A stretch of DNA of 64,000 nucleotides from Chiloscyllium plagiosum (Eukaryota): positions 26,277,377-26,341,376 of the forward strand of contig NC_057743.1 in the NCBI RefSeq assembly GCF_004010195.1. Reading direction: 5' to 3'. The translations under genes were made by a program, and so were the position numbers. The notes beneath the pieces are model-generated. The model saw only the letters and a list, made by a program, of their open reading frames with translations. It was not told the origin of the DNA and did not search any database. Shown in pieces: positions 2,540-62,420 of this stretch; within the stretch, counting starts at the first letter, position 1; each line of letters starts with the position of its first letter.

Positions 2540-3075
2540 TTGAATCCAGAAGGCTGTAGAGTTGCCTGCCACTTCAATACACCACCTTGTTCCCTGGCCA
2601 ACATCTCTGACTCAGATCTGTTGCAGTGCTCCAGCATAGTTCAGCACAAGCTGGAAGTACAGCATCTCATTTCCTGCATGGGGTCTAACCTTCTGGACTC
2701 AATATCAAATTTCACAATTTCACCTAAGTCCTTACCCCACTTTGATATCACATGGTCTGTTATTACATACAACCCATTGTTAGCCACTAATCATCCCCAT
2801 TAGCAGTCATTCATTCTCCGAGGGGACTCATTATTCACTCTTTTGTCTGTCCAACTGTTCTTCTTTCTGTTTGGGCTCTATCTCTACCTACCGTTTACCC
2901 CTTATCCCCTTCCTCCACCCTATATTCTAATTAAAAAACTTGTTCCTAGCTACATCAGTTCTGAAGAAGGATCACTGGACTGGGAAACATTAACTCTGAT
3001 TTCTCTCCACAGATGCTGAGGTTTTCCAGCAATTTGTTTTGTTTTGTATTTCAGGCATCTGTAATTCTTTCGGTT
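2540..3075 (+). mobile_element. Penelope-like element 3' fragment (GIY-YIG C-terminus, 3'UTR, decayed hammerhead)
   Basis: VACHFNTPPCS...HKLEVQHLISCMG resembles the PLE endonuclease C-terminus; ctgaagaagg...gaaacattaactct at 2961-2997. Confidence 0.75.
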
Positions 3076-3357
3076 TGTTTGCCCCAGAACATCAGCTGAG
3101 TTTCTTGATTAATAGTCTTGCAATAATAGCACTAGGCCTCCACCATCTCATTACCCAATGTGTGATCCTCAAAGTTTCTGCAACAATATCTATCATATGA
3201 ATTGAACAAGTAACTAGTTGCAAAAATTGTATTGTGGTAACTAGATTTCTAATTAGACCAGAAAGTGGTTTTCCTTGGCCACATGAATCAAGCAGACCCT
3301 ATTAGATGTTTAGAGATTTGTGGCAATAACCTTCATCATAAGCAGCATGCGTATAGG

Positions 3358-3567
3358 TTAGAGTGGTGCTGGAAAAGCACAGTAGGCCAGGCAGCATCTG
3401 CGGAGTAGGAAAATCGACATTTCAGGCAGGAGCCCTTCCTGCTGAAGGGCTCCGGTCCATAATGTTGATTTTAGTACTCCTCGGATGCTGCCTGACCTGC
3501 TGTGCTTTTCCAGCACCACTCTAATCTTGTCTCTGGTCTCCAGCATCTGCAGTCCTCACTTTTGCCT
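3358..3567. mobile_element. Palindromic Penelope-derived hammerhead cassette, family A (degenerate)
   Basis: ~85-bp inverted arms (ttagagtggtgctggaaaagcacag... / ...ctgtgcttttccagcaccactctaa) meeting at a damaged ctgctgaagggc core. Confidence 0.8.
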
Positions 3568-4279
3568 TTGAGCAGCTGGTATGGTATAGTGTAGTGTAGT
3601 GTAGTGAGTTGACATGCTCATAGAAGGACTGGTTTCAGGAGTGTGCTTTTCGGGTGCTGATCAGCACCAAGAATAAGCTCAAACTTCTGACTGTATCTGT
3701 ATATGTTGAAAATTAGCATGACTGCAAATACTCCAGGCTCTTGTGGATACATAGATCCTGAGAATCCATACCTTCATAGTTTTGTGCTGCTGATTTTTTT
3801 CTATTTTAGAACACATTGCAAAGATAATTATTACAGCCAGTCTTTCCCATTGCCAGCATGTGTGATAAAGCCATTGATAAATCTAACTTTGTCAGTGCCT
3901 ATAGTTCAATAGTGATTGCTGTTGTGACATTGAACCATAACCTGAACTGTCCTTAGAGTCTGAACCAGCAAAACGTTCGATATTCCCATGCTGCACTCCT
4001 ATTGCGTTGATTGATATTTATATAAATGTCACATAGCCCAGCAGTAACACAAACATAGCAAGAGATTTGATGGAAGGGGAGAAGTGGGGTGACAAAAAAA
4101 ATTGAGAGAGAGATTTATAGTGAAGATACATCATATTGGAGTCAATATGCAAGACCTGAGTTGGTGCATAAACAAAATAGGTGGGATGAGAGTTTCAGTT
4201 TACAGTAGTAGTAGTTTGGTTGGGGGTAGTTTGCAGGGATAGGGATAAGGCAGGAGGGGATTTCTATTCAAAAGCAAGG

Positions 4280-4285
4280 TTTATT
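4280..4285 (-). terminator. Candidate DNAJC11 polyadenylation signal AATAAA
   Basis: tttatt on + is AATAAA on -, about 360 nt downstream of the stop in an AT-rich 3'UTR; usage not verifiable from sequence. Confidence 0.5.
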
Positions 4286-4642
4286 ATGGTAATAGCGTCT
4301 GGTTTTAATTTTAATTTTCTTTATACATCAAATAGACTTCATAAAATGGAATCTTCTTCCAGGGTACAGGAATCACTGACAAAAGGTCTGAATCCCAAAC
4401 TTCAAATTGTTACAGCATTCTGTGACAGATGACACGGAGAAACCCACAACCGGATGTTGCTATTTAGTGATCTGTAAAAGCAGTTTTTAAATCTTTGTAC
4501 ATTGAAAAGAACCAAAAAAATTCTACATACATAAAAATAATTATATGTGCACTCTCTTTAATTTATGGGACACTGAAGAGTTTTAGCAGCTGGTCTCTGT
4601 TCAGGTTCAACTTCTCATCACAGCCTGCAAATCACTTTCTCC

Positions 4643-4668
4643 TCAGCCATCTGTGTCAATCCTGTGTG
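4643..4668 (-). CDS. DNAJC11: DNAJC11 exon 16 coding part (26 nt, includes stop)
   Basis: ttcacag|(S)HRIDTDG-TGA, matching the C-terminus recalled for vertebrate DNAJC11. Confidence 0.95.
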
Positions 4669-7600
4669 CTGTGAAGGGAATCAGAGGAAACAGTTATTTT
4701 GCAGTAACGGATAACTCATCGATGAGCAGGAATAACCAAATCTAGTAGCATCTTCAAAACAAAGAAGCTGATGAGACAGCTTTATTAGTGAAGAACTTCA
4801 ACTGAAAAGTTAATGGGTTACATTTTCAAATTTAACGCAAGGTTCAAATAAATCAAACATTTCCATCACTTTCATAAAGGCAAAAACACTGAAAGCAAAC
4901 AAAATCTCAGTTTGCAGCAGTAACAAACTTTTAAATTGGACAAAAATGCTGATTGCAACAGATTTATTCTGTGTGGGTTGGGAGACAATGGAGATGATGA
5001 AAAGTCCTCAATGACATGGTGAGCTCTTATTCCCAGTTCACTAGATACAAATTTCACTTCCATACAGTTACTTTCTCCACTGAAATTTCACATTTCAGTC
5101 ATTAATATGGAACATTTCCAAGAACTTTCTGAAGTGATATGGTCAGTAATACCTTGGGCTTGGGGTGGATAAAAATATAGCAAGACAATTAAACTTTTAT
5201 TCAATTGAACCTTGCTTGAATTCATATTAACTGTCCTTTCTATTTAAGTGCTTGCATGACGTCTTGCAAAATAAATTTCATTCCCCCAAATTATGTTTAG
5301 CTTTGATTTCCATTTGCAACTCTTCAGATAATGTAGCAGTCAATATACAAATGCAATCTAACCTACAAAAAGTTCAGGCTTGTGCTTTAACAGGAAAGTA
5401 ACTCATTTCCCACACAACTGTCAGACATTAACCATTTCTGACAATTTCCCCTGACAATCAATGTGGTGTAAATGAGCCAGCAAGTTCTCAAAATACAGGT
5501 CTCTCAATCTCCTGCACTCATTGATGGACTAGTGTCTGTTTAACGTAGTTATTTTTCCTGCAAGATCCAGTTCACGTTCTCATTTATTAACAAACTGATG
5601 GCCCAAGGTATTACTGACCATATCACTTCAGAAAGTTCTTGGAAATGTTCCATATTAATGACTGAAATGTGAAATTTCAGTGGAGAAAGTAACTGTATGG
5701 AAGTGAAATTTGTATCTAGTGAACTGGGAATAAGAGCTCACCATGTTATTGAGGACTTTTCATCATCTCCATTGTCTCCTGGACATAATTTTGAATATAA
5801 CTCACATTGCTTTGGTATCCTGAGGGATTCATTATCGGCTGTCATGACCTGGTGCAGAACCCCTCGGAACAAATAGATCACTTTTAGGCTCTTTTCCTCT
5901 CCGACACATGGGTCATAGAATCCTGGTACACTAATCTGTAATAAACATATAGTTTGTGAATGATTATACAAACACACAACCGAATTCAGTAGGAAGAATC
6001 TGGCAATGTACACTATAACAGGTCCTCAAGGAAATTAAAATTCAAACTTTGCTCTCCCCATTTAATGACAACTTTGTTTTGGAACTTTAACTTACCTCAC
6101 TGGTATGTAGCAGCTTAACTCAACTGGCAGCACATTGAACTTTGAGACAAGTAATTGCAGGCTCAAACCCTGTTGCAGTATTTGACTATACAATTCGGAC
6201 TAACAGACCAGTGCAGTAATGTGGAAATACTGCACTCAGATGAAATATTAAATTGAGATTATTTTAGCTGGGTGTATTACAGCAGGTTCTCCAAGTTACC
6301 TGGTCAACAATTATCCTAAACAATATCAGAACTGAACAGCATTGCTATTTGTGAAAGGTTCTGTGTGCAAATGGACTATGTGTTTCCTTAAATTGCAACA
6401 ATTACTGTACTTCAATTGTACGAGACATGTTCTGAGATGTACTAAGGTCACAAAAAACATTTTAAATTAAAGTTCATTCTTTGTTTAATAGAACATATCT
6501 AGGTTCAATGTTGAGAAACTACCCGAAGAATTATGAACCGTGTTCAAGGTTCCTGAGTAAAGGGGATGAATTGGCAGCATGGTGACTAAACACTTTGACC
6601 AAGTGGTATATTATAAGGAGCTTTTTGATGGCCAGGACAGAGCACAGAGGTGGAGAGATTTGAAAAGAGAACGAAAGAGCTGTACATTATAGTATGGGAT
6701 GTTACATCACTGCTTGGATCAAATTCCCACATCATAGCACTCAATAGTTTGCAGTCACCTCAGGTCAGCAGGTTACACGTTACAGGCCCTCTCCAGAAAC
6801 TTGAGCAAATATTGTAGGCAAGCAGCACTTAGGAACAGCAGCACCACTGAAATGCCACCTCTCAGATAAGCTGTAAACTAAAGCCCTGTCTGTTGCCTCA
6901 GGTGGCACTATTGCAAAGAAAAGAGTAGGGGAGTGGTTCACAATGTGTAAATATAACTTCAAAGTTTGGGTGAAGATTTGTAGCTCGGGTGCTCGTTGTT
7001 GTGGTTCTGTTCGCCGAGCTGGAAATTTTTGTTGCAAACGTTTCGTCCCCTGTCTAGGTGACATCCTCAGTGCTTGGGAGCCTCCTGTGAAGCGCTTCTG
7101 TGGCGTTTCCTCCGCCATTTATAGTGGCCTGTTAGTTGATGTTCATGGATGCGGATCGTTAGCTGTCTTCCTGTTTGTCCTATATAGTGTTTTGTGCAGT
7201 CCTTGCATGGGATTTTGTACACTACATTAGTTTTTGTACACTACACTACATTAAATATAACCTTGGTATTTAAAAAAAAGGAGGGAATCAAAGGCCATTA
7301 GTAATAGGTAAAACTGCTAGAATCCATTATTCAGGACACAGTAATTGGGCACTTGGGAAAATCACTACGAATAGGAAAAAATCATGGTTTACCTTTTTGA
7401 AGGTGTAATAGTAGGTAAAGGGAAATCAGAGAAATGTAGTATATTTGGATTTTCAGAAAGCATTCAGCAAGGCACTAGAGGAAATTGCTGCACAAGATTA
7501 TGTCCATGGGATTGGGGAAAAATACGTTAGTTCAGATAGGCTAATGGACAGAAAACAGGATGTATAAATGGACTGGCAGTTTTCCAGATAGCAACGTGTA

Positions 7601-10600
7601 ACTAATGTTGTGTTGGGAGGATCAATGTAAAGAGCAATAGCTCAAGCAATCTAGATCGAGATTTGGATGACTGGATTGAATGTAATATAAAAAAGTTTGC
7701 TGACAATGCAAAGTTAGGGGAGAAAAGAAACTGAGGAGCTTGCAACGAGTATGCAAAGGAACACAGTCGGGCTAAGTGGATGGATATGAACTGGCAGATG
7801 GAATGTAAAGAGTATAAGTATGAAATTCATTCCTGATGAAGGGCTTTTAACCGAAATATCAATTTTCCTGCTCGTTGGACAATGCCTGACCTGCTGTGCT
7901 TTTCCAGCACTACTCTAATCTAGACTTTTGCCATAAGTATGAAATTTAGATTAGATTAGATTAGATTACATTACAGTGTGGAAACAGGCCCTTCGGCCCA
8001 ACAAGCCCTGCACATCTTTGGACTGTGGGAGGAAACCGGAGCACCCGGAGGAAACCCACGCAGACACGGGGAGAACGTGCAAACTCCACACAGTCAGTCG
8101 CCTGAGGCGGGAATTGAACCCGGGTCACTGGCGCTGTGAGGCAGCAGTGCTAACCACTGTGCCACCGTGCCGCCCGGCAAATTATCCACAATGATGGGAA
8201 ATATGGAAAAGAGGAATAGTTTCAAAAGATAAAGCATTATTATAATGCTGGTAATAAGAATTTGGATTCCTCTGCACTTGAATCACAGAAGTAAAATGAT
8301 CTCTGGTGCTCTGGTTTCTTCCCACGACCCAAAGATGTGCAGATTAGGTGAATTGGCCATGCTAAATTGCCCATAGTACATCAGGGAGGTGTAGGTTAGT
8401 TGCATTAGTCAGGGGTGAAATGTGGAGTAATAGGGTAGGGGAATGGGTCTGGGTGGGTTGCTCTTCAGAGGGTCGGTGCGGACTTGTTGGGCCGAAGGGC
8501 CTGTTTCCATACTGTAGGGATTCTATGATAACACATTAGAAAGGCAAATTGTACGTTAGCTTTAACAGCAAAAGAATTGAAGAACGTACAAGAATAAGAA
8601 AGTCTTGATACAAGTATTATGACTTTGGTAAGATCACAGCAGAAGACTGCAGAAGGATGGATGTACTTACTTTAGAGGAATTGCAACAAAGGATTACTAG
8701 GATGGATTCTTGGAATGAGGCTGCTGCCCTATAAGAACAGTCGAGTGGACCCATGCTCTCTCAATGTCAGAAGAATGAGAGGTGATCTGACTGAAAAGCA
8801 TAAAATTCTAGGACAACTTGGCAAGGTAGATGTTCAAGAAAAATGCTCCCTTTGCTCCTGAATTGGGGGCATAGATTCAGGATAACTAGATTGTCACTTA
8901 GGAATGAGATAAGGGGAAATTCTTTCACTCGAAAGATTGGAACCTTCAGAATTCTCTGCCCCAGAGTACTGTGATGCCAGTTAATGAGTATATTCAATAC
9001 TGTGATCCAGACATTCTTGGTCAATAAGTTAGGATAGAGGAGCTGATGTGGCATTTCAACCATGATCTCATTGAAAGTTGAAGGAGGTTTGAAAGACTGA
9101 AGAGCTATTTCTACTCCCACTTCTTAGCTAATGTGTGTCTTAGCCAATAATTATCTCCCAATCAACATCTTAAAACAGATTATTGCATCATTGTCACATT
9201 GTTATTCTGTATAAATTGTCTGTATAAATTGGCTTCTGTGTTACTTTAATTACAATAGTAACAACACCTCAGAATGACTTAAATGGCTGTAAGGTGCTTC
9301 AGGAAGTTGAGGCTGTGAAACGGTTGCATAAATGCAAATATGTCTTTGCTGTTCTTCTTGATCATTGCTGAGATACACTTGGGAGCCACACTTCCGCAGG
9401 TCAGAAGAAACCTTGAGGAGAGATTGAATTAAGAAGAAGCAGGTACGGCAGGTAGTTAAAAAGATAGAGAAAGGGAAAAAAAAAGTTCTCTTGGTCCAGA
9501 ATGAGAGCAGTGAAAGCAATACAGTGTTGGCAAACCAATGCAAAGGGCAACTTTTTATCAAATAAATATTTAGCCTCACCTTACAGGCTTCAGTAAGAAT
9601 GAGTTTTGACTCCTTTACCAGACACTGAAGAGGAACTGTCACATCAATCACCTTGGCCCTCTCATTCTTCCCACTGCTGTCAGTTACAAACTTTCCATAC
9701 CAGGCATTGGTAATAATTAAGCCTGAGGAGACAAGTAGATATTTACACATGTTCAGCAATATCATATTCACACAGACATGCCCAATACTGCTGTACAAAG
9801 CAGTGGGAGTCTAAAACAGAGATTCTCAATACGAAGTTCATGAACAGAACGATTCTTAAGGATTGTGATGAAAGCTTGGGGGTCAGTGGATTCCCGTCTT
9901 TGTAGGGTCTGGCACAGCGTGGCTATATTTGTTAATTTGGTCTGGGTTTATCTGAATTATAATATTCAAGATATGAAACATCCATAGCAATTATTGATTA
10001 GCTCTGGCTTTCTTTCCATTCCCAATCTGCGCTTTGCCATTTAGTACAAGGGGATTCCAGGATTGTGTGAATATTGGACTCAAGGACCCCCTCGCATGTT
10101 CAGATGTGGGTCATAGACTCTTGAAGAATGAGGCTATGGATCAGATGAGAGAATTTCTCTCTGAAACTACATAAATATTAGCAGAAGGCAGATACATAGA
10201 GAAGACTGGAAACATGGCTATCATAATCTTCTCACATTATATACAGAATCTAAGAATGATGATGTTGAGAAGTGCAATTTCTCCACAGACATAAGCCACA
10301 GATTTCTCTCCTCCTCTTTCGTGAACATATGGGTCCAAACTGGTTTACATTTTTTCATTATCTTCAGCTATGATATTCACTATTTTGGGAGAAAGTGAGG
10401 ACTGCAGATGCTGGTGATCAGAGCTGAAAATGTGTTGCTGGAAAAGTGCAGCAGGTCAGGCAGCATCCAAGGAGCAGGAGAATCGACGTTTCGGGCATGA
10501 GCCCTTCTGAAGGAATAAGAAGGGCTCATGCCCGAAACGTTGATTCTCCTGCTCCTTGGATGCTGCCTGACCTGCTGTGCTTTTCCAGCAACACATTTTC

Positions 10601-13600
10601 AGCTTTTATTCACTATTTTGCTCAGGTAGACATTACAAAGTAAATTAATCTCTCAGCGTTGCATTAATTTGGAGGAAGAATTTCAATTTTCAATAAACTT
10701 TCCGATGTTTTTCTCTACAGTTTTGTAGCTCAGGCCACTTTACAGTCAGTGGCTGGCTTATGCAGCATTAATGGGTGAGAAGAAAATGCAGCAAAAAAAT
10801 ACCTGACAGATGATTGAAATTGAAATCCAGATAAGCAATATTAAGTTCTGACCTAGTTTGGACTCTTCTATTTCTATTATCCTCCTCACAGACTCCTGCA
10901 TCAACCGGACCTTAAAATTAAAAGCAAAAACTATTAAAGAAAGTCTTAGTACTTTTAATAGATTACTCCCTACTCTAAATGATGTATATGCATTGAATTG
11001 ATTTTCCTACTCGATGCAGAAAATAAACATTTGTGAATTTCTCATGGCCAATTTTTATAACTCAAACCCTCCACTCCTGACAACATCTTGACAAATCTTT
11101 TCTGAACTCTCTCCAGAATAACAAGATCCTTCTTAAATAGGGCAATCAGAACCACACACATTATTTCAGAAGAGGCCTCATCAAGTTACTGTACAACCTC
11201 AACATGATGTCCCAACTCCTATACTCAAAGGTCTGAGAAAATGAGGGCAAGTGTGCCAAGTACCTTCTTAACCACCCTGTTTACCTGTGATGCAAGTTTC
11301 AAAGAATTATGTGCCTGAACCCTTACCTCTCTGTTCTACAGCACTAGCCAGGGCTTTACCATTAATTGTGTAAACCCTGCCCTTGTTTGTTTCACCAAAA
11401 TGCAATACCTCACATTTATCCAAATTAAACTCGGTCTGCCATTTCTTAACCCTTTGACCAAATTGATCAAGATGTCTTTGTAATCTTAGAGAACCTTCTT
11501 TGCTGTCCACTATACCACTAATTTTGGAATCACCTGCAAAATTACTGACTACGTTTCCTATATTCTCATCCAAAGAGAATTTTGCATCCAATTGGTAAGT
11601 TCACCCTGAATCGAATGTGATCTAATTTTATTAATTAGTCTATCCTTGCTTTCGGATTAAAGCTCCTAAGTCTAGCTGGAGTCTGAAACCATGTGATCCA
11701 ACCCAAAAACTAGAACCAGGAGGAGGCAAGTTAAGAGACATTTCTTCAGGTAAAAGATGGTAGAAGTGTCAAACTCTCTCCCACCTAAGTAGTTGAAGCT
11801 AACTCAATTAATAGTTTTAGGGTTTTTTTTGCTAGCTAAGGTTATCTAGAGACATGAAGCCAAGATAACACAGCAGAATTACGATACAGGTCAATCATGA
11901 ACTTAGTGAACAGTGCAACAGGCTATATGAGTTGAATGATTATTTATTCCTACGTAACTGCTGTGAAGAATGTTGCTGTCACATATAAGCAGATGAATGA
12001 GCAGAAGTAGGCTACTTAGCTCCTTGAGCTTGCTCTGCAATTCAATAAGGTCACGGCTAATCTAATTGTAACATTAAATTAGCATTCCCACCTAGCCCTA
12101 AGAATCTTTCAGCTCCTTTCTTAACAGAATCGACCTATCTCTGCCTTTAAGATTCTGTTTCACCTTTTTAGGAAGGGAGCTCCAAAGACTCACGCCATCA
12201 TCTTGGGTGGGGAACTCTGATTTTAAAACAAGTAATCCCTCTCTCAGATTATATGAGATTTATACCATTTCCTCTCCTTGTTTCAACGACTGCACTTACC
12301 GCTGCCTCAGCCTCTTGTTTCTTCAATGCTATAGTACTCGATGAACTTTCTCTTTGTTTCTCTAATTCTCTGTCACATATATGCACACAAAACAAAACAG
12401 CACGTTATTTAAGTGACCGCCAGAAGTCTCAAATTTTTACACCCAGTAAAACAAAAAAAAATGGTATTAAAAGGATTTCCTAACAAAGTAGGAGAAATAC
12501 AGGGAAAAACAGCTGAAAATAAACAACCTGAGCTACAAATCTTCTCAAAACTCGCTATGAGCAATCTAACAGGGTTTCATTGATTTAGTTATTTTTAAAT
12601 CAACCTGTTTGGACTCATTATGACTCACCTCTTGGGTTAGTGGGAGTTGAACTTGGTCCAATTAGCTCAAAAGTAGAGACATTACCACTGTGCAACAAAA
12701 GCCCAAGCCTATAGTGTAGCCATAAAGAGCCATAAATTTATACAGCATGGAAACAGACTCATTGGTCCACCTAGTCTACGCTGACCATGTTCCCAAACCA
12801 AACTAATCCCACTTGTCTGCGTTTGGCCCATATCCCTTCAAATATTTCCTGTTCATGAACGTATCCAAATGTCTTCTAAACAGTGTAACTGTGCCAACAT
12901 CCACGACTTCCCCGGCAGTTCATTCCACACACGAATCACTCTCTGCGTAAAATAGTTTCCCCTCGTGTCCTTTTTAAATCTTCCTCCTCTCACCTTAAAA
13001 ATATGCCCCTAGTTTTTTGAACTCCCCCACTCTAGGGAAAAGATCTTTTCTGTGCCCCTCACAATTTTATAAACCTCTATGAAGTCACCCCTCAGCCTCA
13101 ATGGCTCTAGGTATAAGGACCCCCAGCTGTCGGCATTAATTTGAGTTTGAATGGCTCCAATACAGAAGATGATATTTTACCAACATAGTGTACTCTATTA
13201 ATTTATTGCAATCTCCATAAGCTTTGATGGAAACCTAAACGGACTGACACAGTTAATAAACAAAGTTAAATTACGTAGTTATATCATTTCGAATCTTTAC
13301 AATTTTGGTAATTAGATATATAATTTATTCAATATTGAAGTTAGGAGGTAATAATACTGATTTAATTATAACCTCGTAAATCAATGAGAATAAAGTTTGG
13401 CGTACATGTTATTGGTATCAAGGTCTTCCTTTCTGTGAAAAAATATTCTCGGGTGATCCTTCATCTAAATACTAAGCAAAAAGTCTTAGCTTCTGAGACG
13501 AGCCATTTTCAGTCTAATAAAGGTCATAGGCAAAAATTACCTCACCGAAATAGAACATTTCAGCTAGTGCTGCTGACAGCCAATTGATAACTACATTTCT

Positions 13601-16600
13601 CTACCAGATTGTTGTGGAGTTGAGACGCATCAGAAACTTTCTCTTGTGCCACCCAGTGGCCTGTACCATGATAGCTGTCACAGCAAACTTTAATGGGAAA
13701 TATTGACATAGAAATTTACAATGGCAAAGATTGCAATGAAAATTCATATTTAGGAAAGAAATCTGAATTGGAGAAAAATAATTAAGATTTGCATGCAAAA
13801 TATTTAAAATACTTCATGCAATGGATTGAAGATAAAGTTGCAGGTAAAAATCTAACAAATATGTGTCGTTTATATAAACTAAATGGTAAAGATCCAAGAT
13901 CAGACTATCCACCAGGTTCTAAAAGATTGCATTGGAAAATTTAGAAATTGAATAGTGGACACTTTGAATCAGCTACAGGCAAGTGTCAAACCAAGGGTAT
14001 CAGACAGTTTATAAGTAGAACAACGCCACTGGCTTAAAATAGTGCCTAACCGATCCAAGAATCTAATAGACAGTTTGCAAAAACTGAGATAGTACTCACA
14101 TTCTCTTACTAGATTATACCAGAGTATTTAGTAATCATCATAAATTTCTAAGTGCACAATGGATTTCAATATCAAATAGCATTAGTTTGCTTTTCCTCTT
14201 TGGATGCCTGGGGCTTTCTGCTCTCTATGGTTCAGTAGAGAAGAAGGTAGTAGTACATTGTGGTGAATGAACAACTGATCAGCTGCAAGTGGAGAATGAA
14301 ATATACAGAAGGAATAGAGAAGAAAAACCTAGACAGTTTGACAGCCAGGCAAAAGCACACTCACTTTTCTTTCTGCATTCGGAGGTAGGGCTTGATGATA
14401 AGCCGGTGCATGGCAAAATAGAACACTAGAGGTCCAATTGTAGCATAGAAGATGGCACTGGGCAAGAGTTGGTCTGTTAGATGAATAGGGAAGAAGTAAG
14501 TCTGGCTGGCTCGATTTAACCTGGAGCAAAAGAAAGGTTTAAAAACAAAATTCAGGAAGGAAAAGTAAAAATCATGAACACAGGTTATTCTACTGATTAA
14601 AGGATTCCAGTCCACTACACAATCCTTAGGCATTATAATAAGGCACTGCGGCAGTTTTATTTGCTCATGAAATACTCATTCAGCAGCTGGACATCCACTT
14701 CTAATTGTTGGGATGAGGCTTGTACAATAATTCAATATCATAAAATGTCCAAAAAAGCATTATAAAACAAAGTATGACAAAGTTATACAAGGAGATTTAG
14801 GTCAGATGACCAAAACCTTGAGAAGGGCTAAGGAATGCCTTAAAAAAGTGGAAAGCAAGGCACAACTATGCAGGGATGGTACTAGTTAGAACCTTGGCAA
14901 GAGAAGGTGGTAAAGCAAAAGAAAAATCAGAGAAAACAAGAGGCCAGAATTAGAGCAACAGAGATTTCACAGAAGGCTGGAGTCTGGAGGAGATTATGGA
15001 GATGGGTTACGGAAGGATTTGAAAAATAAGATAAACATTTCAAAACCAAGACATTGTTTGACTGGGAGTCAATGTAGATTAGCAAGCACAAAGCTGATAG
15101 GGATCAGGACTTGGTGCAAGATCAAACTCTGGCAGGGAAGATTTAGATGACCCCATGTTTATGGAAGGTCAAAGACTAGAGACCATCTAGGAATGCATTG
15201 GAATTGTCAAATATAAAGACTTGGCTGCGGATTTTAGTAAGACATCAGCTGATGCAGGGGCAGAGGCAGGCAATGTTTCAGGGTTGGAAATAGGCAATCT
15301 TAGCATTGGCATATGAATTTGGGATCACAGGCAACACCAAGGTTACAAACAGTCTGGCTTCATCAATGGCCTTTGCCAGGGAGAGGGATTGTGTCAGGTA
15401 ATTAGGGAATGAAAATAGGAGCAGGGACCAAAACAACATGCCTTCAGTACAGGCCCACTCTGCATGTGCAAAGAGTTTCAGAAGGCTTTTCTATTGCTAA
15501 TGCATCAGTTGAGATTCACCTAAAGCAACACAGCCCTGAAAATGAACCTTTAATTTTATTATTTTGAGCAGTGCCTCTACTCACTAACCTAAGGAGGAAC
15601 ACAAAAAGAATCAACAGCTTGCTTTTGATAAAGAAAAGTCACTCCCGTTTGTGAATACTTGTTGCCATAGTCACTGGATGCAGCTTCTACCTATCACGTG
15701 CTATTAAGATCATCATATTCTGGAAGGGACTGAGGAAATGCCAAGGAAGGAACAATCTCTTAAGATTAATAAAATGAATAATTACGTAAGAAGTGTTTCA
15801 CAGTCTGTAGGATGGTCCCAATGACTCTTAAGAATCGGATAAGCTCCTTTACGTCGTTGAGCCTGTATCAACTTTATTTAGATAGTGACTGATCTGTATT
15901 CCATCCACCTGCTGTGTTCTGTATCTCTCACTACAATGATAAAAGTCATACAGCATGGAAACAGAGCCTTCAGTCTAACTCATCCATACCAGACATCCCA
16001 ATCTGACTGAGTCCCATTTGCCAGCATTTGGTCCATTTCCTTCTGGATGGTGTAGTGGATAGTGAAGAAGATAATCTCAGAGTACAGGGACCTTGATCAG
16101 ATAGGCAAATGGGCCGGGTGTGGCAAATAGAGTTTAATTTAGATTCATGCGGGGTGTTCATTTTGATAAGGCAAACTGGGGTAGGATTTGTACAATTAAT
16201 GGTAGTGCTTTGGGGAGTGTTGCCGAACAAAGAAGTCTCGGAGTGCAAATACATAGTTCCTTAAACTTGGAGTCACAGGTAAACAGGATGGTGAAGGCGG
16301 TGTTTGGACCATGTCTTCATTGGACATAACACTGAGTATAAAAGTTTGGATGTCATGTTGTGACTGTACAAGACTTTGGTGAAGCTACCTTTGCGTACAA
16401 TTCTGGTTCGAGTTGAAAAGCATGGCGTTGGAAAAGCACAGTAGGTCAGGTAGCATCCAAGGAGCGGGAGATTCAATGCTTTGGACATAAGCCCTTCATC
16501 AGGAATTCCGGTTGCTCTTCTACAGGAAGGTTATCATTAAAAACTTGAGACAGCGCAGAAAAGAGTTACAAGGATGTTACTGGCACTGGAGGGTTTGATT

Positions 16601-49307: not shown

Positions 49308-49500
49308 TGTCACCTTTCACCCCGTAGCGGGGCACCGGCTTCTCGCCAGGCCCCGGCTGCCGAGGAGGGAACGATTCACCAAGAGATTCCCTCTCCTTTC
49401 ATACGGCACAACTCCTTTGTGCTGCCCTCTGCTGGCCTGGGAGGACTTTGGTGTGGGGTGTGGGGTGTGAACCCAATCAAACAGGAAATGACGTCCCAGA
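49050..49500 (-). promoter_or_regulatory. CpG-rich promoter/first-exon region of DNAJC11
   Basis: Only markedly CpG-dense non-repeat stretch in the window. Contains CCAAT at 49473-49477 and an ETS/CRE-like CAGGAAATGACGTC at 49482-49495. Confidence 0.75.
49236..49307 (-). CDS. DNAJC11: DNAJC11 coding exon 1 (72 nt)
   Basis: ATG at 49307-49305; [24 protein letters not shown]; donor GAG|gtgagg. Confidence 0.96.
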
Positions 49501-50258: not shown

Positions 50259-50719
50259 AATTTGTGACCTACTACTCGGACTGCAGAGAGACAGCAAGGG
50301 GTTTCAAAACTATTATGGAAAAGGAAAGCTGAGTATCACCATGTGAGATGTGACCCCATGCTAACAGGTAATGAAGCCCGTACATGCCCAATCCCCGTTG
50401 GGATATTCTAAAGTCTCTTCACATTTCTTCATTGAAAGCAGATTTGAATAGCCCCTGTACACCACGACCTTTCTTCCCTGTTGGGGTTGTTCTCACTTTT
50501 AACAATTTCTCCTTCAACTCGTCACATTTCCTCCAAGTCAGTGTTGTATCTTAGTTATGACTGTCTCTTTAAGGGGTATGTGGAATATTCAGTGTCATAG
50601 AGATGTCCCACAACTCTATCTGGTGCACTAATCACATCAAAACCAATTAACTCTGGACCTCAGCAGAAAACAGCACAGATTACAATGTTGCTTCCTGCTG
50701 TCATGTAGAATTAGTTCGT

Positions 50720-51860
50720 TTTACTTTCAATTTCCATTCTTCCCTTCACCTGGTCCATCTCTGACTCTTCCTTGACTCCTCTTCCTATTTTTGAGGATCA
50801 ACTGTCCACCAATATCCACTACAAACCCACTGGCTCCCCCAGTCACCTTGACTACAGTTCCTCTCAATAAGGACTCTGTCTGGACCCACTTCTGCTCCCT
50901 GCCAGAATAATGATAGGGTCCTTCTTGTCCTCAATTTCCACCCCACCCGCCTCTGCATTCAAAGGATCATCCTCTGCTATTTCATAACCTCCAGCAGGAT
51001 GGCACCACCAAACACATCTTCGCTTCTTCACTGTCAGCATTTCGCAAGGACCAATCTCTTCTTGACACCAAGTCCACTCTGTTGTCACTCCTAACACTTC
51101 CTCATCCCTGCCCATGACATCTTCTCATGCAATTACAGAAGGTGTAACACTTGCCCTTATTTCTTCCCCCTCCTCACTGTCCAAGGCCCCAAACACATCT
51201 TCCAGCTGAAACTGCAGTTTAGTTGAACTTCTAACAATCCAGTTAACTGTATACGTTGCTTATGATGCAATCTCCTGTACATCAGCAAGACCCAAATGCA
51301 GATTGGGGGACTGCTGTCTGGAACTCCTCTGATCTGTTTGTAAGAACAACCCTGACCTTCTACTCGCTTGCAGTTTCAATACACCACCTTGCTCTCATAC
51401 CAACAGGTACATCCTATGCCTGCTGTAGTGTTCCTATGAGGCTCAGTTCCCTGAAAAGCAACACCTCATTTCTACTTAGGCACTGTACAGCCTTCAGGAC
51501 CCAATGTTGAGTTCAACAACTTAAGAACATGAATGCTGTGCTCCATTTGTGATTACATTTGTAATAGGTTTGCTGTTGGCAAAACTGAACCTATTTTCTG
51601 CTTTTCATACCTGCCATCGACACCTGTTTTGCATCTATTTAAACTTTACCATCATTAATACTCTTATTTTGATTATCCCTCTGGGCAGCCTCACCATCTG
51701 ATCCACTCCTTCCTCCTCTCTCTTTGATAGCAGCATCAAATAAAAGCCATCATTTTCCAGCTCATTTCAGTTCCTTAGGAAGAGACATACTGGATCTTTG
51801 TTTTTATCTCCATGGATGCTGCCAGACATGCTGTGTTTCTGCAGTACTTTTTATTCTTCA
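50720..51860 (+). mobile_element. Degraded Penelope-like element (RT thumb, Cys linker, GIY-YIG, 3'UTR)
   Basis: FTWSISDSSL, STNIHYKPT.S..LDYSSS and CNYRRCNTCPY...QGPKHIFQ motifs; decayed family-C tail at about 51770-51850. Confidence 0.8.
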
Positions 51861-51987: not shown

Positions 51988-52863
51988 CTATAATAACTTA
52001 CTTTATTCATTTGTGAGATATGGGTGTCACTGGCTAGGCCGGCATTTATTGCCTGTCCCCAGCTGCCCTTAAGAAGGACTTGGTGAGCTGCCCTTTTGAA
52101 CTGCTGCAGTCCATGTCTCATAGGTTGACCCCTTAGGGAGGGAATTCCAGTACTTTGACCCAACAACGCTGAAGGAATGGCAATATATTCTGAGTCAGGA
52201 TGGTGAGTGACTTGCAGCAGAACTTGCAGGTGGTGGTGTTCCCATTTATCTGCTAACTTGGCCTTTCTAGATGGAAGTAGTCATGGGTGTGGAATTTGTT
52301 GTTCCAGGATTTTTGATTAATTTCTACATTGCATCTTATAACTAGTGCACTGTGCTGCTACTGAGCATCAGTTGACTGGATGGTTATGGATATGGTGCCA
52401 ATCACAGGCTGCTTTGTTCTGGATTGTGTCAAGCTTCCTGAGTGTTTTTGGAGCTGCATCCATCTGGGCACGTGGGGAATATTCCATCATACTTCTGACT
52501 TGTGCCTTGTAGATGATAGGCTTTAGAGAGTCAGGAGGTGAGTTACTTGCTGCAGTATTCCTAGCTTCTGACCTGCTCTTGTAGCTATTGTGTCTATGTG
52601 GCAAGTTCAGTTAAGTTTCTGGTCAGTGGTAACCCAAAGGATGTTCAGAGATGTTCCGTGATGGTAAAACAATTGAATTTCAAGCGGCTGTGGTTAGATT
52701 GTCTCTTATTAGAGATGGTCATTGCCTGGCATTTGGGTGGCACATATGTTACTTCCCATTTGTTAGGCCAAGTCCTTCTTAAGGGCAGCTGGGGACAGGC
52801 AATAAATGCCAGCCTAGCCAGTGACACCCATATCTCACAAATGAATAAAGTAAGTTATTATAG
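51988..52863. repeat. 96-bp inverted repeat (51988-52083 / 52768-52863, 95/96 identical)
   Basis: Base-by-base comparison; single mismatch at 52040/52811. Confidence 0.95.
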
Positions 52864-52930
52864 TATCTTTAGTATCTGAGGAATCGTGAATGGTGCTGAA
52901 TATAGTGTGATCACTGATGAACATCCTGTT
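52000..52930 (-). mobile_element. LINE 3' fragment (same family as 32880-35210)
   Basis: IYKAQVRSMMEYSP...LDTIQNKAAC and KWEVTYVPPKCQAMTISNKR. Confidence 0.8.
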
Positions 52931-54330: not shown

Positions 54331-54611
54331 TCACTAGCATCCTGCAGTGAAGAGATGGTACTTAAAGTGGGGCAACTCCTATGCTGGTGGGTCTGGTGCA
54401 GGCAGTGTCAAGGCAGTGGAAGTCTCCCTTGAGGCTGAGTGCCATCTTGGACTGGGGTCAGAAAGATTGATATTCTGAAATTTTCACTTCTTTATCTTTC
54501 TGATTTATTCCTATGACTTGTAATGCTGGACTGCTTATTTCTTTATTTGCCTAATTTCTTTTATTTCCTAAGAATTTGATCTTGAGTATCTGTACCTAGA
54601 CACCTTTGTAC

Positions 54612-55906
54612 CACCTGCCAGCACCTGGCCCATATCCCTCCAAACCTTTCCTATTCATATGCCCATCCAAATGCCTTTTAAATGTTGCAATTCTACTAGC
54701 CTCCATGACTTCCCCTGGCAGCTCATTCCATACACGTACCACCTTGGGTCTCTTTTATATCTTCTCCCTCTCACCCTAAAACTATGCCCTCTAGTTCTGG
54801 ACTCCCCCACCCCAGGGAAGAGACTTTGTCTATTTATCCTATCCATGCCCCTCATGATTTTATAAGCCTCTATAAGGTCATCCCTCAGCCTCTGATGCTC
54901 CAGGGAAAATGGCCCCAGCCTATTCAAACTCTCCCCATTGCTCGAATTTTCCAACCCTGGCAACATCCTTGTAAAACTTTTCTGAACCCTTTCAAGTTTC
55001 TTGACATCTTTCCGATAGGAATGAGACCAGAATTGCACGCAGTATTCCAAAAGTGGCCTAACCTGTACAGTACAGCTGCAACATGACCTCCCAACTCCTG
55101 TACTCAATACTCTGACCAATAAAGGAAAGCAGACCAAACGCCTGTTTCACTATCCTATCTACTTGCGACTCCGCTTTCAAGGAGCTATGAACCTGCACTC
55201 CAAGATCTCTTGTTCATCAACACTCCCTTGGACCTTACCATTAAGTGTATAAGTCCTGCTAAGGTTTGCTTTCCCAAAATGCAGCACCTCACATTTATCT
55301 AAATTAAACTCCATCTGCCACTTCTCAGCCCACTGACCCATCTGATCAAGATCCTGTTGTAATCTGAGGTAACCTTCTTCGCTGTCCACTACACTCCAAT
55401 TTTGGTGTCATCTGCAAACTTACTAACTATGCTGCTTATGCTTACATCCAAATCATTTATATAAATGATGAAAAGTAGTGGACCCAGCGCCGATTCTTGT
55501 GGCACTCCACTGGTCACAGGCCTCCAGTCTGTAAAACACGCCCTACACCACCACTCTCTGTCTTCTACCTTCGAGCCAGTTCATTATCCAAATGGCTAGT
55601 TCTCCCTGTATTACATGAGATCTAACCTTGCTAACCAGACTCCCATGGGGAACCTTGTTGAATGCCTTACTGAAGTCCATATAGATCACATCTACCGCTC
55701 TGCCCTCATCAATCCACTTCGTTACTTCTTCAAAAAACTCAATCAAATTTGTGAGACATAATTTCCCACGCGCAAAACCATGTTGACTATCCCTAATCAG
55801 TCCTTACCTTTCCAAATACATGTACATTCTGTCCCTCAGGATTCCCTCCAACGAATTGCCCACCACCGACATCAGGCTCACTGGTCTATAGTTCCCTGGC
55901 TTGTCA
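54612..55906 (-). mobile_element. CR1/HER1 LINE RT to 3' end
   Basis: [53 protein letters not shown]. Confidence 0.93.
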
Positions 55907-55914
55907 CAGAGTTC

Positions 55915-56233
55915 TAGGGTAGAAAGGGAAGTGATTGCTGGGCCCCTTGCTGAGATATTTGTATCATCGATAGTCACAGGTGAGATGCCCAGAAGGTTGG
56001 CTAACATGGTGCCACTGTTTAAGAAAGGTGGTTAGGACAAGGCAGGGAACTATAGACTAGTGAGCCTGACATCGGTGGTGGGCAAGTTGTTGGAAGAAAT
56101 TCTGAGGAACAGGATGTACATATGTTTGGAAAGGCAAGAACTGATTAGTGATAGTCAACATGGATTTGTGTGTGGGAAATCATGTCTCATAAACTTGATT
56201 AAGTTTTTTGAAGAAGTAACGAAGAAGATTGAT
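55915..56233 (+). mobile_element. CR1 RT fragment inverted relative to 54612-55906
   Basis: LANMVPLFKKG..DK.GNYR.VSLTSVVGK...QHGF. Confidence 0.88.
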
Positions 56234-56239
56234 GAAACT

Positions 56240-57770: not shown

Positions 57771-57774
57771 TAGG

Positions 57775-59150
57775 TTGGGAACATTTGTGGAGCTTCCTTC
57801 TCCAGTGAGCTTAACTGTCCACTACTATTCATGACTGGATATGGCAGGATTGCAGAACTTAGATCTGATCCATTGGTTGTGGGATCATTTAACTCTGTCT
57901 GTCACTTGCTGCTTATGTTGTTTGGCATGCAAGTTGTCCTGTTTGATAGTTTCACCAGGTTGACACCTTATTCTAGGTATGTCTGATGCTGTTCCAGCAC
58001 ACTCCATTGAACCAGGGTTAATCCTTGGCTTGACAGTTATGGTTAAGTGGAGGATATGCTGGATGTTGCAGATTGTGCTAAAGTACAGTTCTGCTACTAT
58101 TGATGGTGACTGATGCTCAGTCTTGAATTCCTAGATTGGTTTAAAGTCTCTCCCATTTAGCACCATGGTAATATCACATAACACAATGGTGGGTATTCAC
58201 AGTGTGAAGATGGGCCTTCATCTTCACAAGGACTGTGTGATAGTCACCCTTACCAATGCTGCCATGGACAGAGTTAAATATCAAACAACACCAGATTATA
58301 GTCCAACAGGTTTATTTGGAAGTACAAGCTTTCAGAGCGCTGTTCCTTTATAAGGTAGCTACTTGATGAAGGAGCAGCGCTCTGAAAGCTTGTACTTCCA
58401 AATAAACCTGTTGGACTATAACCTGGTGTTGTTTGATATTTAACTTTGTCCACCCAGTCCATATATCATGGACAGAAGCAGCTAGAGCGGGCAGATTGGT
58501 AAGGATGAGGTCAAATATGTTTTGCCCCTTCATTGGTTCCCTCACTACTTGCTGCAGAACCAGTTTAGCAGCTATGTCCTTTCGGACCGATCAGCCCGAT
58601 CAGTAGTGCTGCTGCTGAGCCACTCTTGTTGTGGACATTGAAATCCCACTCCCAGACTACATTTTGCACCCTTGCCACCCTAAGTGCTGCATCCAATTGT
58701 TGTTTCAACTTCGAAGAGTATTTATTCATCAGTGGAGTCAGTACATGGTAATTAGCAGGATGTTTCTTTACCTATATGTAACCTAGGACTTCATGAGGTC
58801 TGGAGTCAATGTTGAGGATTCCCTGGGCAACTCCTTCCCAACTGTTTACTACCATGCTGCCTCCTCTGCTGGATCTGTCTTGCCAGTGAGACAGGACACA
58901 TCCAGGGATGGTGATGGTGTCTTGGATATTGTCACTAACATTTGATTCTGTGAGTATGACTATACTGGCAGTTGCTTGACTAATCTCCCAATTTTGGCAC
59001 TACCCCCCAGCTGTTAGTCAGGAGAACTTTGCAGGGTCAACAGGGCTGTTTCTGCTGTTGTCTTTTCTGGTGCCTATGTGGATGGCAAGTGGTCTGTCCG
59101 GTTTCATTTCTTTGTTAAGACTTCATAGCGATTGTTACAACTGACTGGCA
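57775..59150 (-). mobile_element. Degraded LINE endonuclease region (family of 19860-21298)
   Basis: REPMKGQNIFDLILTNLP motif. Confidence 0.7.
58273..58466. mobile_element. Palindromic Penelope-derived hammerhead cassette, family B, 10-bp TSD
   Basis: ~78-bp inverted arms; tTGATGA-A-GGAGC-AGC-GCTCt-GAAA-GCTT; TSD catggacaga at 58263-58272 and 58467-58476. Confidence 0.88.
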
Positions 59151-62079
59151 TGCTAGGCCATTTCAAATGGCAGTTGAGAATCAACCATATTGCCCTGGGT
59201 CTGGAGTCACATGTAGGCCAAACCAGATGAGGATGGAGATTTCTTTCCCTGAAGGACATTAGTGAGCCAGATGAACTTTTTCAACAACCGATAATGGTTT
59301 CATGATCATTAGTAAATTCTTGGTTTCCATAATTTATTTTTTAATTGAATTAAAATTCCACCATCTTCCACTAATCAAACTTGGTTCCCCAGAATAGTAG
59401 CTGGATTAGTAGTCTAATGATAATAGCATGCCTTGGAATTTAGGAATGGAACAACAATTTGGCAGTACTGTTACCACATAGACTGAATAGTTGAAGAAGG
59501 AGGCTCACCAGATCTTCTCAAGGACAACAAGAGATGGCTAACGAATGCTGACCTTGTCAGGTCTGCAATGAATTAATACATTAAAAGTTAGGAGCAATCT
59601 CACAGAGTTCAACGACAGAGCAGAGTATGGTGTTTCAGACCTTAATCTCATTGAATTCTGCAGAAATACAGAGGAGGATGCAATGTGAGAAAGCACCATG
59701 TTCACAAACAATATCATTTATGAAATGGCTGCTTTCAGTGCTTTGAAAAAGCTACACTACACTAGAAGAGAGATTCGGGAGTTTTGGGAAAGGTGGGAAT
59801 TGAGTTTAAAATAATGGCACCATGTATGAGGATCCAACATGGAAAGAGGTTAGAAGGTAAAAACCATACAGTAAGGAAAAGAATTTCTACCCCAACACGC
59901 CAGTTGTACAGAATTTATATGGACCCTGTAGCACATGATTACCTGAGGCGACAGTCTGAAAAACATTGATCAAAGTGAACAACTCCTATAATAACCTCCA
60001 TGGCAACAAAACGCTTGCATTTATGTAGTATCTATATGTAGAAAAATATACCAAGGAATTCTTGGGAGTATTATTGAACACATTTTTGCAATGAACCACG
60101 TGGTGAAAGGTCGGGACTCGTTTCCCCCCTCCAAATTTGATCAAGCAAAACCCCAGAATATTTCCACTATTTGGCAGAATGTTAGTATGTGTTACATAAA
60201 TATATCAATAAGAATTATTTTGGGATATTACTGACTATTACAGTATGGCACTGAAGGTGATATATTAGGTTTTTGGGATGTAATCGTAAGGATTTGAAGA
60301 GTATCCTGCTCCAATTATTGGGCAAGATGGTAGAGCTTTGAAGGCTGTTATGATATGGGCTGATAGATGTTATGGTAGTGTGTTGTGGGGTATTGTTGTA
60401 GCATGTTGACTTAGAATCCCTGTAAGGCCTCACTTGTCCCTATCTCTGTAGTCTAATCCTAGTCCTCAAACCTCCAGGTTCTTAGCGGTCCTTTAATTCA
60501 GGGCATCTGCACATTTTTGGTTTTAATTGCTGTATCATTGCCTGCTGGCTGTTGACTTCTTTGGTCCAAAGCTTTGGAATTCCTTATCTAAACCTCTCCT
60601 ACTTTGTCCTTCTTTAAGATGTTCCATGCAATGTGTCATCAACCAAATGTTTGGTCACCTATCCCAATACTCCTTAGCTTCAAACTGTGTTTAGTAAAAC
60701 TCTGTTAAAGTCCCTTGGGTTATGCTTAACCGAATTAACAGCACTAAATAAATGCACACTTGTTATCATACTAAAGCTGTTATAGAAATAGTTCTGATTG
60801 GTCAATGTTTCATAAAGGAGTGATGCTCTTATCTAAAATGAATGTGCACAGAAATATTGCATTATGCAAAACGTTGTCCTGGGGAAAATGGCAGGCTACC
60901 TGAAAAGCAGTAAAATACAGAAAGTATATGATGATCTTTCTGTAGAGACATGGATTTTAATGTCATTCAGCAGCCCTGAAATCTCATGATCTTTTATAAC
61001 AAAGTCATCACTTTTTAATGACTGACTGGAGGTTGGTGGTGCTGGATTAATGCAAGTCATGTAACTCTTCTATAAATTACATTCGTCAGCAGTTCCCAGA
61101 CGAACAACTTGCAAAAAAACCGCTTTGGCTCGTCTCCATAGAAACTTAACATTCTGCAAGGAGCCCATCAGATAAAATGAATACTGACAGCACTATAATC
61201 TGATAAAAGTGTAGTTTTTTTAACATTTCTTTTTGTACTTTGTGAATTTTGTTCTTATTAAGTAAGGAATATCTGCATTTAGGAATGGAGCACTTTCATT
61301 TTGTGTTTCAAATGTCAAGGATAAGATATAGTGTAGAGACAGACTTGAACAGCTTCTCCTAGTTTTGTGTCATTTATCACCGAGAATGAACAAGGGTGGC
61401 AATGTCAGACAATATATTTGCTCTTAAGTTCTTCTCCAAGCCATACACCATCTTTATTTGAATAAATTGAACATATTCATGTTTACTGGGTAAAATCCTG
61501 GAATTTCCCAACTAACAGCATCATGGCAACATCAATATCAGCTGGACAGCAACAGTACAAGGTGGAGGTTCACTATCAATAACTTAGAGATGGGCCATGG
61601 TCAGAATTGTCCAAATTACCAGAACAAACCTTAGCCCAACAAGGCATCTTGGCCTGAAACTGAACCCAAGTAAATCTCCTCCTGTTGCGGCAATTTCTTT
61701 TGTCCACCTCCTGTCTTGTCCTCTCTGCTTCAGGTATTTTGTATAGTGTCAACTGTTTTTGAATTGCAGGCAATTTTATATGTTGCCTGATTGGAAAGAA
61801 ATATTATGCATTTATATAGCATTTTCATCCGAGGGTGTCCCACAGCACTTCACACTTTAGAAAAGTAGTCAAAGCTTGTATGTAATCATTCACAGCAATC
61901 GGTTTGAGAATAGCAAATTATCACAAGTGGGGAATGAGATGGGTGAACAGATAATCTATTTTTATGGAATTCGTAAGGTATAATGGGAGTCACTTCTATG
62001 TTGTGGGCTCAAGGGACTGGTGTGAAACTTCCCTCACCTAGGCAGGATGCTTACAACTAACAGAGAGTCCCATCATAAT

Positions 62080-62420
62080 AAAACAAAGAACTGTGGATGC
62101 TGAAGATCTGAAAAAAACCCAGAAATTATTGGAGAAACTCAGCATCATCTGTGAAGAGAAAACAGAGTTAATGTTTTGAGTCTGGTGATTTCTTCAGAAC
62201 TGATAGTATCATTTATGCTGATGATGTGGATGTGCCGGTGTTGGACTGGGGTGGACAAAGTTAAAAGTCACACAGCACCAGGTTATAGTCCAATAGGTTT
62301 ATTTGGAAGTACTAGCTTTCGGAGCCCAGAAAGTGAGAGAAAGACAGGTAGATAAAGGAATGGCTGCTAATAAGCCAGGGAAAGAGAAAATGGTGAGCTG
62401 GAGATGTCGAAAATGGTGAG
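62080..62420 (-). mobile_element. Penelope family C 3' tail with a nested family B arm (62222-62325)
   Basis: Reverse complement ttCTGAAGAaatcaccagactcaaaacattaactct; nested gctccGAAAGCTAgtacttccaaataaacc arm. Confidence 0.72.

Follow-up and report, generated by a model that had tools for sequence, protein, structure and literature searches.

What are the short, hammerhead-bearing insertions that lie scattered through a 64,000-nucleotide stretch of the shark Chiloscyllium plagiosum (contig NC_057743.1, positions 26,277,377 to 26,341,376; hereafter, the window), and by what machinery were they put there? An earlier note on this DNA saw in them a system of retrozyme-like elements centred on the ribozyme. 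In the current analysis, we find, with a probability of about 0.95, that they are ends of Penelope-like elements (PLEs). Most of them are decayed end-pieces, likely left behind by the copying machinery of parent elements rather than by a separate ribozyme-driven system, and we are fairly confident that coding-type parents rather than the mini-copies supplied most of the template. Whether the preferred 5' edge of family A, at position -4 of the ribozyme, marks the start of the RNA is, in our judgment, evenly balanced.

As a "new ribozyme system" these units carry little weight. The literature already covers the class of element, the variant of the ribozyme, its cleavage as a dimer, and the way the insertions are built; hammerheads of minimal form in PLE ends, truncated copies that stand alone, inverted copies, and tails have all been described. 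Their value lies instead in what they tell about how PLEs regenerate the pseudo-long terminal repeat (pLTR) and about what the hammerhead does. A literature search, which did not reach most subscription papers, turned up neither these shark families nor a fixed 5' edge at helix I.

Hammerhead-bearing loci in the window

The letters A, B, C, and D denote hammerhead families, an arm is one copy of the terminal repeat, and TSD stands for target-site duplication. The window holds 13 hammerhead-bearing loci with 17 arms: seven loci (10 arms) of family A, two (three arms) of family B, three of family C, and one of family D. The earlier note listed 12 places, all of which lie within about 10 bp of an insertion or inside one; its total of "about 11 copies" was too low, and a 13th locus (the C3 locus, ca. 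50470-51860, plus strand) came to light in a sensitive self-search, alongside the two family-C loci already listed (C1 and C2). All seven A loci and both B loci are short and noncoding, the A arms make up roughly 1.5% of the window, and single-arm copies with TSDs are as common as hairpin copies. The loci are as follows.

C1, 2555-3075, plus strand: 5'-truncated 3' end of a Neptune-type PLE, with a remnant of the endonuclease C terminus (ca. 2555-2700), a 3' untranslated region (UTR), a decayed hammerhead (2957-2998), and an arm.
A1, 3351-3568, no strand assigned: head-to-head hairpin with the short end in the left arm and the tail in the right arm; both cores decayed; no clear TSD.
D, 6958-7251, minus strand: start of a GIY-YIG domain (7133-7234), an internal deletion, and a terminal repeat with an intact minimal hammerhead (core nucleotide C3 at 7070); 10-bp TSD (6948-6957 and 7252-7261).
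A2, 7828-7932, plus strand: single arm starting 5 nt before the core; internal deletion in the tail; stem II broken; 14-bp TSD.
A3, 10388-10606, no strand assigned: hairpin; left arm with a 34-nt tail and its 5' edge at -4, right arm short and cut within the core; 14-bp TSD.
A4, 16409-16503, minus strand: single arm with the short end and a decayed core, hosted by a LINE-like repeat (LINE, long interspersed nuclear element); 10-bp TSD with one mismatch; a further copy of the host repeat has the site without the insert.
A5, 38428-38548, minus strand: single arm with an intact hammerhead (core nucleotide C3 at 38523; predicted cut between 38496 and 38495) and 25 to 31 nt of native upstream sequence; 11-bp TSD.
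A6, 39151-39240, plus strand: single arm with an intact hammerhead core at its extreme 5' edge; short end; 8-bp TSD.
A7, 43614-43839, no strand assigned: hairpin; left arm short and cut within the core, right arm with a 37-nt tail; stem II decayed; 9-bp TSD.
C3 locus, 50470-51860 (5' limit approximate), plus strand: decayed Neptune-type PLE of ca. 1.4 kb, with the C-terminal part of a reverse transcriptase (RT), a CX4CXXC linker, an endonuclease, a 3' UTR, a degraded hammerhead near 51770-51810, and an arm related to family A.
B1, 58273-58466, no strand assigned: near-perfect hairpin whose centre falls between positions 58358 and 58359 (between -5 and -4 of each core); partial tail of 17 nt on the right arm; mutations in the cores; 10-bp TSD; a further copy of the host repeat has the site without the insert.
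C2, 62075-62204, minus strand: decayed family-C terminal repeat; no coding remnant detected.
B2, 62222-62325, minus strand: single arm with a 39-nt tail, cut within stem II, directly upstream of the C2 core; no TSD.

LINE-like RT fragments are numerous in the window and are the hosts of A4, A5, and A6. Purine-rich sequence beyond B2 (62205-62440) resembles a family-C 3' UTR on the minus strand, and the B2/C2 region is probably one PLE end inserted in another. A brief tandem stutter marks the 5' end of D (7218-7251); in this copy, a large internal deletion has brought the start of the endonuclease up against the terminal repeat.

Coding remnants beside the hammerheads

The C3 locus carries, in this order, the end of an RT, a CX4CXXC zinc-finger linker, endonuclease sequence, and a 3' UTR; a degraded hammerhead and its arm close the series. 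A 42-residue piece of this locus gave six protein matches at an E value of at most 0.001, five of which are whale-shark predictions, in keeping with the shark lineage proposed in the earlier note; the top match (P0003), a low-complexity repeat protein, was left out of the tblastn search, in which the other five were used. On the window, these five whale-shark proteins matched the C3 locus (E down to 5e-16), C1 (P0008; E = 3.4e-6, joining C1 to the C-terminal part of a PLE endonuclease), and, weakly, D (E = 0.049), with no match at C2 or beside B1 or B2. Pfam assigned no RT or GIY-YIG family to P0004-P0008. D is joined to the first 34 residues of the GIY-YIG domain (Pfam PF01541; E = 0.01; 16.5 bits, below the cut-off of 22.6). 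The hammerheads of C1, the C3 locus (degraded), and D (intact) all lie downstream of the coding remnants and on the same strand. The proposal that families C and D are linked to GIY-YIG remnants stands for C1 and, with a score below the Pfam cut-off, for D, and does not extend to C2, where no coding match was found. Families C and D are coding elements of the ordinary, truncated kind.

Within the window, no copy of A or B extends into a coding frame. In the self-search, the arm of the C3 locus matched the A arms with a best E value of 7e-6, and C1 matched A6 at 0.006; family B was assigned to the PLEs on its hammerhead, tail, and hairpin anatomy. A CX2-5CxxC linker marks the Neptune and Nematis clades (PMC8557442), and a preprint reports only Neptune and Poseidon PLEs from vertebrates (bioRxiv 10.64898/2026.07.22.740005), so we call the C3-locus element Neptune-type. 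We take families A and C to be Neptune-type PLE ends. The derivation of the units from PLE termini, as first suggested, is borne out by the coding remnants at C1, the C3 locus, and D and by the homology between A and C arms.

Ends, tails, and target-site duplications

Exact direct repeats flank seven of the ten A, B, and D loci (A2, A3, A5, A6, A7, B1, and D; lengths as listed). With A4, whose repeat has its one mismatch, these make up the eight copies with 8- to 14-bp TSDs that had been described. No convincing TSD was seen at A1, B2, C1, C2, or the C3 locus. Among 2000 random pairs searched with the same slack of ±25 bp, exact repeats of at least 8 bp arose in 5.3%, of at least 10 bp in 0.55%, and of at least 14 bp in 0.05%. 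For A4 and B1, other copies of the host repeat lie within the window without the insert; for A5 and A6 the best match in the window is another A copy, and no empty site was shown.

Family A units, ca. 95 to 130 bp long, have two alternative 3' ends 34 to 37 nt apart, and family B likewise has two, 39 nt apart. Head-to-head hairpins of ca. 190 to 225 bp, each made of two arms that form a near-perfect inverted repeat of 80 to 95 bp, occupy four of the 13 loci (A1, A3, A7, and B1). All four pair one short end with one long, tailed end (34 nt of tail in A3, 37 nt in A7, a similar length in A1, and a partial 17 nt in B1, the single-arm B2 having 39 nt), and the three A hairpins have three different centers. 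No head-to-tail tandem units occur in the window.

PLE insertions are described as strongly 5' truncated, with a truncated copy in inverted orientation at the 5' end and, often at one end only, a tail of 30 to 40 bp (PMC8557442), and as having 8- to 10-bp TSDs, solo pLTRs, and palindromes at inverted junctions (PMC3846280); a similar summary is given elsewhere (PMC8969392). With the endonuclease-positive insertion units of those reports (Neptune, Penelope/Poseidon), the shark loci share the 5'-truncated 3' ends, the head-to-head inverted copy, the tail at one end, TSDs of ca. 8 to 14 bp, an RT with a CX2-5CxxC linker and GIY-YIG domain in the longer copies, and a hammerhead in the terminal repeat. 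They differ in that most family-A copies are cut to the last 95 to 130 bp and have one preferred start (-4) instead of scattered points. Most PLE minimal hammerheads are likewise single motifs from truncated PLEs, with some opposite-strand pairs 100 to 700 bp apart (PMC4209133).

A biochemical counterpart is PAc, the Poseidon element of Anolis carolinensis, in which reverse transcription in vitro starts at two internal sites bounding the tail, on both target strands and with no requirement for ribozyme cleavage (PMC11167929). Two alternative 3' ends with a tail between them, downstream of an uncleaved hammerhead, are shared with the shark units, and extension on both target strands would explain the hairpins. 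Internal initiation was shown in vitro for PAc and would apply by analogy here; PAc is a Poseidon element, whereas families A and C appear to be Neptune-type.

State of the ribozyme

A strict descriptor (core, G-C-closed stem II, palindrome, and cleavable H) applied to the whole window found an intact minimal hammerhead in three of the 17 arms (A5, A6, and D); the remaining 14 are mutated or cut inside the core. In 100 dinucleotide shuffles, the core with stem II gave a mean of 0.01 matches (maximum, 1), and the pattern with the palindrome was found in none; since shuffled sequence almost never yields the former and never the latter, the motif is not due to chance. The intact arms have the minimal type I pattern, with CUGANGA and GAAA boxes, an extra base before stem II, G10.1-C11.1, the palindrome, and an NUH site, and the PLE-type hammerhead recognized in the earlier note is therefore really present. 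The type I core, the extra base, G10.1-C11.1, the palindromic 15.2-16.2, and the lack of helix III are shared with the minimal hammerheads of metazoan PLEs (PMC4209133); helix I (2 to 3 bp) and stem II (3 to 5 bp) are shorter here than the 4 to 5 and 7 to 8 bp of the Schistosoma families in that source. An Rfam scan of the window included no hammerhead family among its 21 matches at E values of at most 10. Its miRNA-like matches over A3 and B1 fell below the gathering scores and reflect the perfect hairpins.

Across the 10 family-A arms, 92.5% of cells in helices I and II are paired, with no two-sided (compensatory) change, as would be expected if copies decay once inserted. From one family to another, stem II is paired through different letters, a comparison limited by an automatic alignment in which D was misplaced and by the choice of intact copies on account of their pairing. 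Reads were aligned to A5 from four of 24 runs, comprising 45,381 and 53,743 DNA contigs, 2,370 raw RNA reads (2% of the run), and 7,987 contigs of a second organism, contig counts not being copy numbers. Among the best 40 of 66 rows of DNA variants inside the ribozyme, those at high frequency fall at N7 (39% of depth in run X1) and in loop II (44%), and changes in stem II, the palindrome, and the cut site are CpG-type at 6 to 10%. Source elements appear to keep the ribozyme while copies decay neutrally. The RNA run revealed no pile-up of molecule starts or ends on A5, although with 2% of a poly(A) single-cell library read this is a weak test for cleavage or circles.

The palindromes had been proposed to be family specific and to act as a self-recognition code. 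Families A and D both have ACGU, which the decayed C copies probably fit as well, and only B differs (AGCU). The predicted 6-nt duplex between A and D palindromes (-3.3 kcal/mol) is as stable as that of A with itself (-3.1 kcal/mol), while the B palindrome is predicted to pair only with itself and not with A or D. With A15.1-U16.1 fixed, only four 4-nt palindromes are possible; given this and the sharing of ACGU by A and D, the code is weak. Cofolding of whole cores gave no hammerhead dimer as the minimum-energy fold in any of 15 pairs, and the predicted core folds are themselves weak (-7 to -11 kcal/mol), that of A5 alone beating most shuffles. Dimer cleavage of PLE hammerheads is already published (PMC6765202), and minimal PLE hammerheads have low activity even as dimers (PMC4209133).

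The predicted folds of the hairpin loci pair 160 to 192 bases, and such copies would bury the hammerhead in a duplex of 80 to 95 bp. In host transcripts they would place duplexes of this length as a possible substrate for editing or small RNAs. The RNA run X21 has an excess of A>G/T>C changes over DNA at 38459 (ca. 14% versus 0.2%), 38481 (ca. 8% versus 0.3%), and 38467 (31% and 8% versus 2%), and the strand bias expected of editing is seen at two sites (38467, T>C 31% versus 8%; 38455, A>G 9% versus 28%). We do not claim A-to-I editing of the hairpins; two other A>G excesses are symmetric, and nonediting changes are strand biased too.

The 5' edge at -4

Five of the seven A loci (A1, A2, A3, A4, and A6) have an arm that starts 0 to 5 nt before core nucleotide C3; A7 starts ca. 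9 to 15 nt and A5 25 to 31 nt before it. The inverted partner arms of the A hairpins start inside the core, and the cut site is not the starting point of any of the 10 A arms. The symmetry center of B1 also falls between -5 and -4. Among the best 24 of 648 rows of loose ends on A5, the largest upstream one in all four runs lies behind 38527, which is -4 (838, 914, 421, and 237 records), and the peak is one to two bases wide. DNA flanks at this point are long and disagree with one another (median, 255 letters; agreement, 0.32 to 0.33), as unique genomic flanks would, and raw-read depth across it drops from ca. 920 to ca. 160. In a minority of copies the sequence extends beyond 38554, into a single pyrimidine-rich upstream stretch that they share (151 and 167 contigs; agreement, 0.56 to 0.57), and therefore longer, parent-type copies exist. 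We did not count the loose ends at 38488 and 38446, taking them for subfamily differences from A5. Family A can thus be upheld as a discrete unit that favors one 5' edge and is present in very many copies. An initiator-like sequence, for which we take the consensus to be YYANWYY, has its A at -4 in A7R, C1, and C2, a match expected at 1.3% of positions by chance. The abundance of family A looks to be above the 4,000 to 9,000 motifs of coelacanth and Xenopus (PMC4209133), with the reservation that contig counts are not copy numbers.

The reads on A5 also contain opposite-strand joints, which pair 38522-38532 (the -4 edge) with 38476-38515 and are concentrated near the predicted cut (38495/38496), at 38486-38498. 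The RNA run has a loose-end consensus at 38488 that likewise departs from the element after 38495. These joints could be arms copied from cleaved RNA, or they could come from alignment clipping at subfamily differences together with one expressed locus. No dominant head-to-tail joint was found among the best 15 of 20 joints.

How the copies may have arisen

The parent element would be transcribed from a promoter inside its terminal repeat, with -4 as the transcription start; starts inside the pLTR are described for Drosophila Penelope (PMC2377424) and for a Chlamys element (PMC8557442). The parent protein would then nick the target DNA and begin cDNA at one of two sites, ca. 95 or 130 nt downstream of the front edge of the ribozyme, so that target-primed reverse transcription would proceed from two internal start sites flanking the tail, on uncleaved RNA, as published PLE work suggests. 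Family-A cDNA often ends at -4, likely since the RNA itself ends there and the RT runs off its 5' end. Hairpins would arise anew at insertion, when both target strands prime and two short cDNAs are joined head to head. The resulting genomic copies are mostly dead (14 of 17 arms broken).

One tentative extension, possible rather than probable, is that shark Neptune RNA starts at the first base of helix I and that the 95- or 130-nt "strong-stop"-like cDNA is mostly integrated as it is, alone or as two joined head to head, a long copy with its pLTR forming only after a jump to the 3' repeat of the RNA. If this is true, first intermediates of the process would survive, frozen, as the tens of thousands of mini-copies and would explain pLTR regeneration, and solo copies, given an internal promoter, could spread in the manner of short interspersed nuclear elements (SINEs). 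Tens of thousands of copies with one 5' edge make the choice between an RNA start and a stall directly testable.

Several observations pull away from this account of parent and promoter. Unique flanks are over-weighted when contigs are counted. In all four runs, the loose ends at 38527 begin with the same letters, and their agreement in the raw RNA reads is 0.45; part of the peak is therefore the upstream sequence of a second subfamily rather than an insertion edge. The initiator-like match fails in A5 and D, both of which retain native upstream sequence, and the RNA run has no start or end peak on A5 (the library being a poor test of this). Arm homology is the only tie between family A and a coding frame, and family B has none. 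No full-length or partial-tandem parent (pLTR-open reading frame-pLTR) was seen in the window; in metagenomes, a 32-nt family-A motif had no match in contigs, and the whale-shark protein P0008 led to no confirmed locus. A search for homologues of the C1 remnant gave no match, nor did an Atlas search, both being weak negatives. Finally, the clade label of D, presumably Poseidon-type, depends on a motif.

Among other explanations, the one that fares best, doubtful as we consider it, is that -4 is a truncation hot spot, where the RT stalls on a folded or protein-bound hammerhead or where cDNA is joined through microhomology. The edge falls on the 5' strand of helix I, and A4 and A6 share 3 nt with their own TSDs at the edge. 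The PAc ribozyme is protein assisted (PMC11167929), and in Drosophila Penelope the same point is the end of an intron and not a start (PMC4209133). As the enzyme comes first to the 3' side of stem II, a stall would more simply be expected there, and both the narrowness of the peak and the weakness of the predicted core folds speak against one.

It is unlikely that the short A (and B) units are SINE-like solo pLTRs, with an internal promoter and RT start sites, making linear RNA from -4, and mobilized in trans by the Neptune protein. Such elements would account for the fixed 5' edge, the tens of thousands of contigs, and the short, noncoding form of every A and B locus. The Penelope promoter is internal (PMC2377424), pLTR sequences are enough for mobilization in trans in Adineta (PMC3846280), and putative nonautonomous PLEs are reported from Chlamydomonas (PMC8557442). 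However, a share of the copies continues into shared upstream sequence, hairpin centers differ among copies, and the RNA reads fall about equally on both strands with no start peak.

The retrozyme reading of the earlier note, in which the units self-cleave as dimers, circularize, and reinsert, with the palindromes as a recognition code, now seems very improbable. Non-LTR retrozymes and the window units are both short and noncoding, with a type I hammerhead, a pLTR origin, and larger TSDs, and retrozymes have been proposed to derive from PLE pLTRs, one cartilaginous fish genome having some (bioRxiv 10.64898/2026.07.22.740005). The window does hold minimal hammerheads with palindromes, the core seems to be conserved in source elements, and the B palindrome is predicted not to pair with those of A or D. 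However, retrozymes are head-to-tail tandems of 150 to 450 bp with circular RNA (PMC7229834; bioRxiv 10.64898/2026.07.22.740005) and mostly canonical hammerheads (6-bp helix I, loop contacts), whereas the window units, at 95 to 130 bp, are solo or inverted, minimal, and mostly dead. The lack of tandem units in the window and of a dominant head-to-tail joint among those best supported, the absence of any A arm starting at the cut site, the 14 broken arms, and the palindrome common to A and D all tell against it.

Miniature inverted-repeat transposable elements (MITEs) have symmetric terminal inverted repeats and a single TSD length, and the idea of the hairpin copies as MITE-like DNA transposons whose terminal inverted repeats are long, which the four near-perfect inverted repeats of 80 to 95 bp and their TSDs (none convincing at A1) might suggest, can be dismissed given TSDs that vary from 8 to 14 bp, asymmetric arms with the tail on one side, hairpin centers that differ between copies, equally common single-arm copies with TSDs, and an arm homologous to a retroelement 3' end.

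Other features of the window

Three further inverted repeats are unrelated to the hammerhead families and may be inversion-duplications:

4981-5159 and 5601-5779: 179 nt, 99% identity, 441-nt spacer.
51988-52083 and 52768-52863: 96 nt, 99% identity, 684-nt spacer.
55706-55905 and 56036-56235: 200 nt, 88% identity, 130-nt spacer.

The Rfam scan returned a SCARNA4-like match at 35651-35782 on the minus strand (41.2 bits; E = 1.9e-4; below the gathering score of 60) and a weak CPEB3-ribozyme match at 36484-36558 on the plus strand (22.9 bits; E = 0.13) that is likely due to chance. A likely host exon at 14361-14516 on the minus strand has no Pfam match, and its peptide presumably resembles DNAJC11, as a candidate only. 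A CpG-rich stretch near 49050-49500 may be a promoter. A young, SINE-sized repeat is present at 8007-8176, 21307-21502, and 33858-34067, its copies being 93 to 98% identical.

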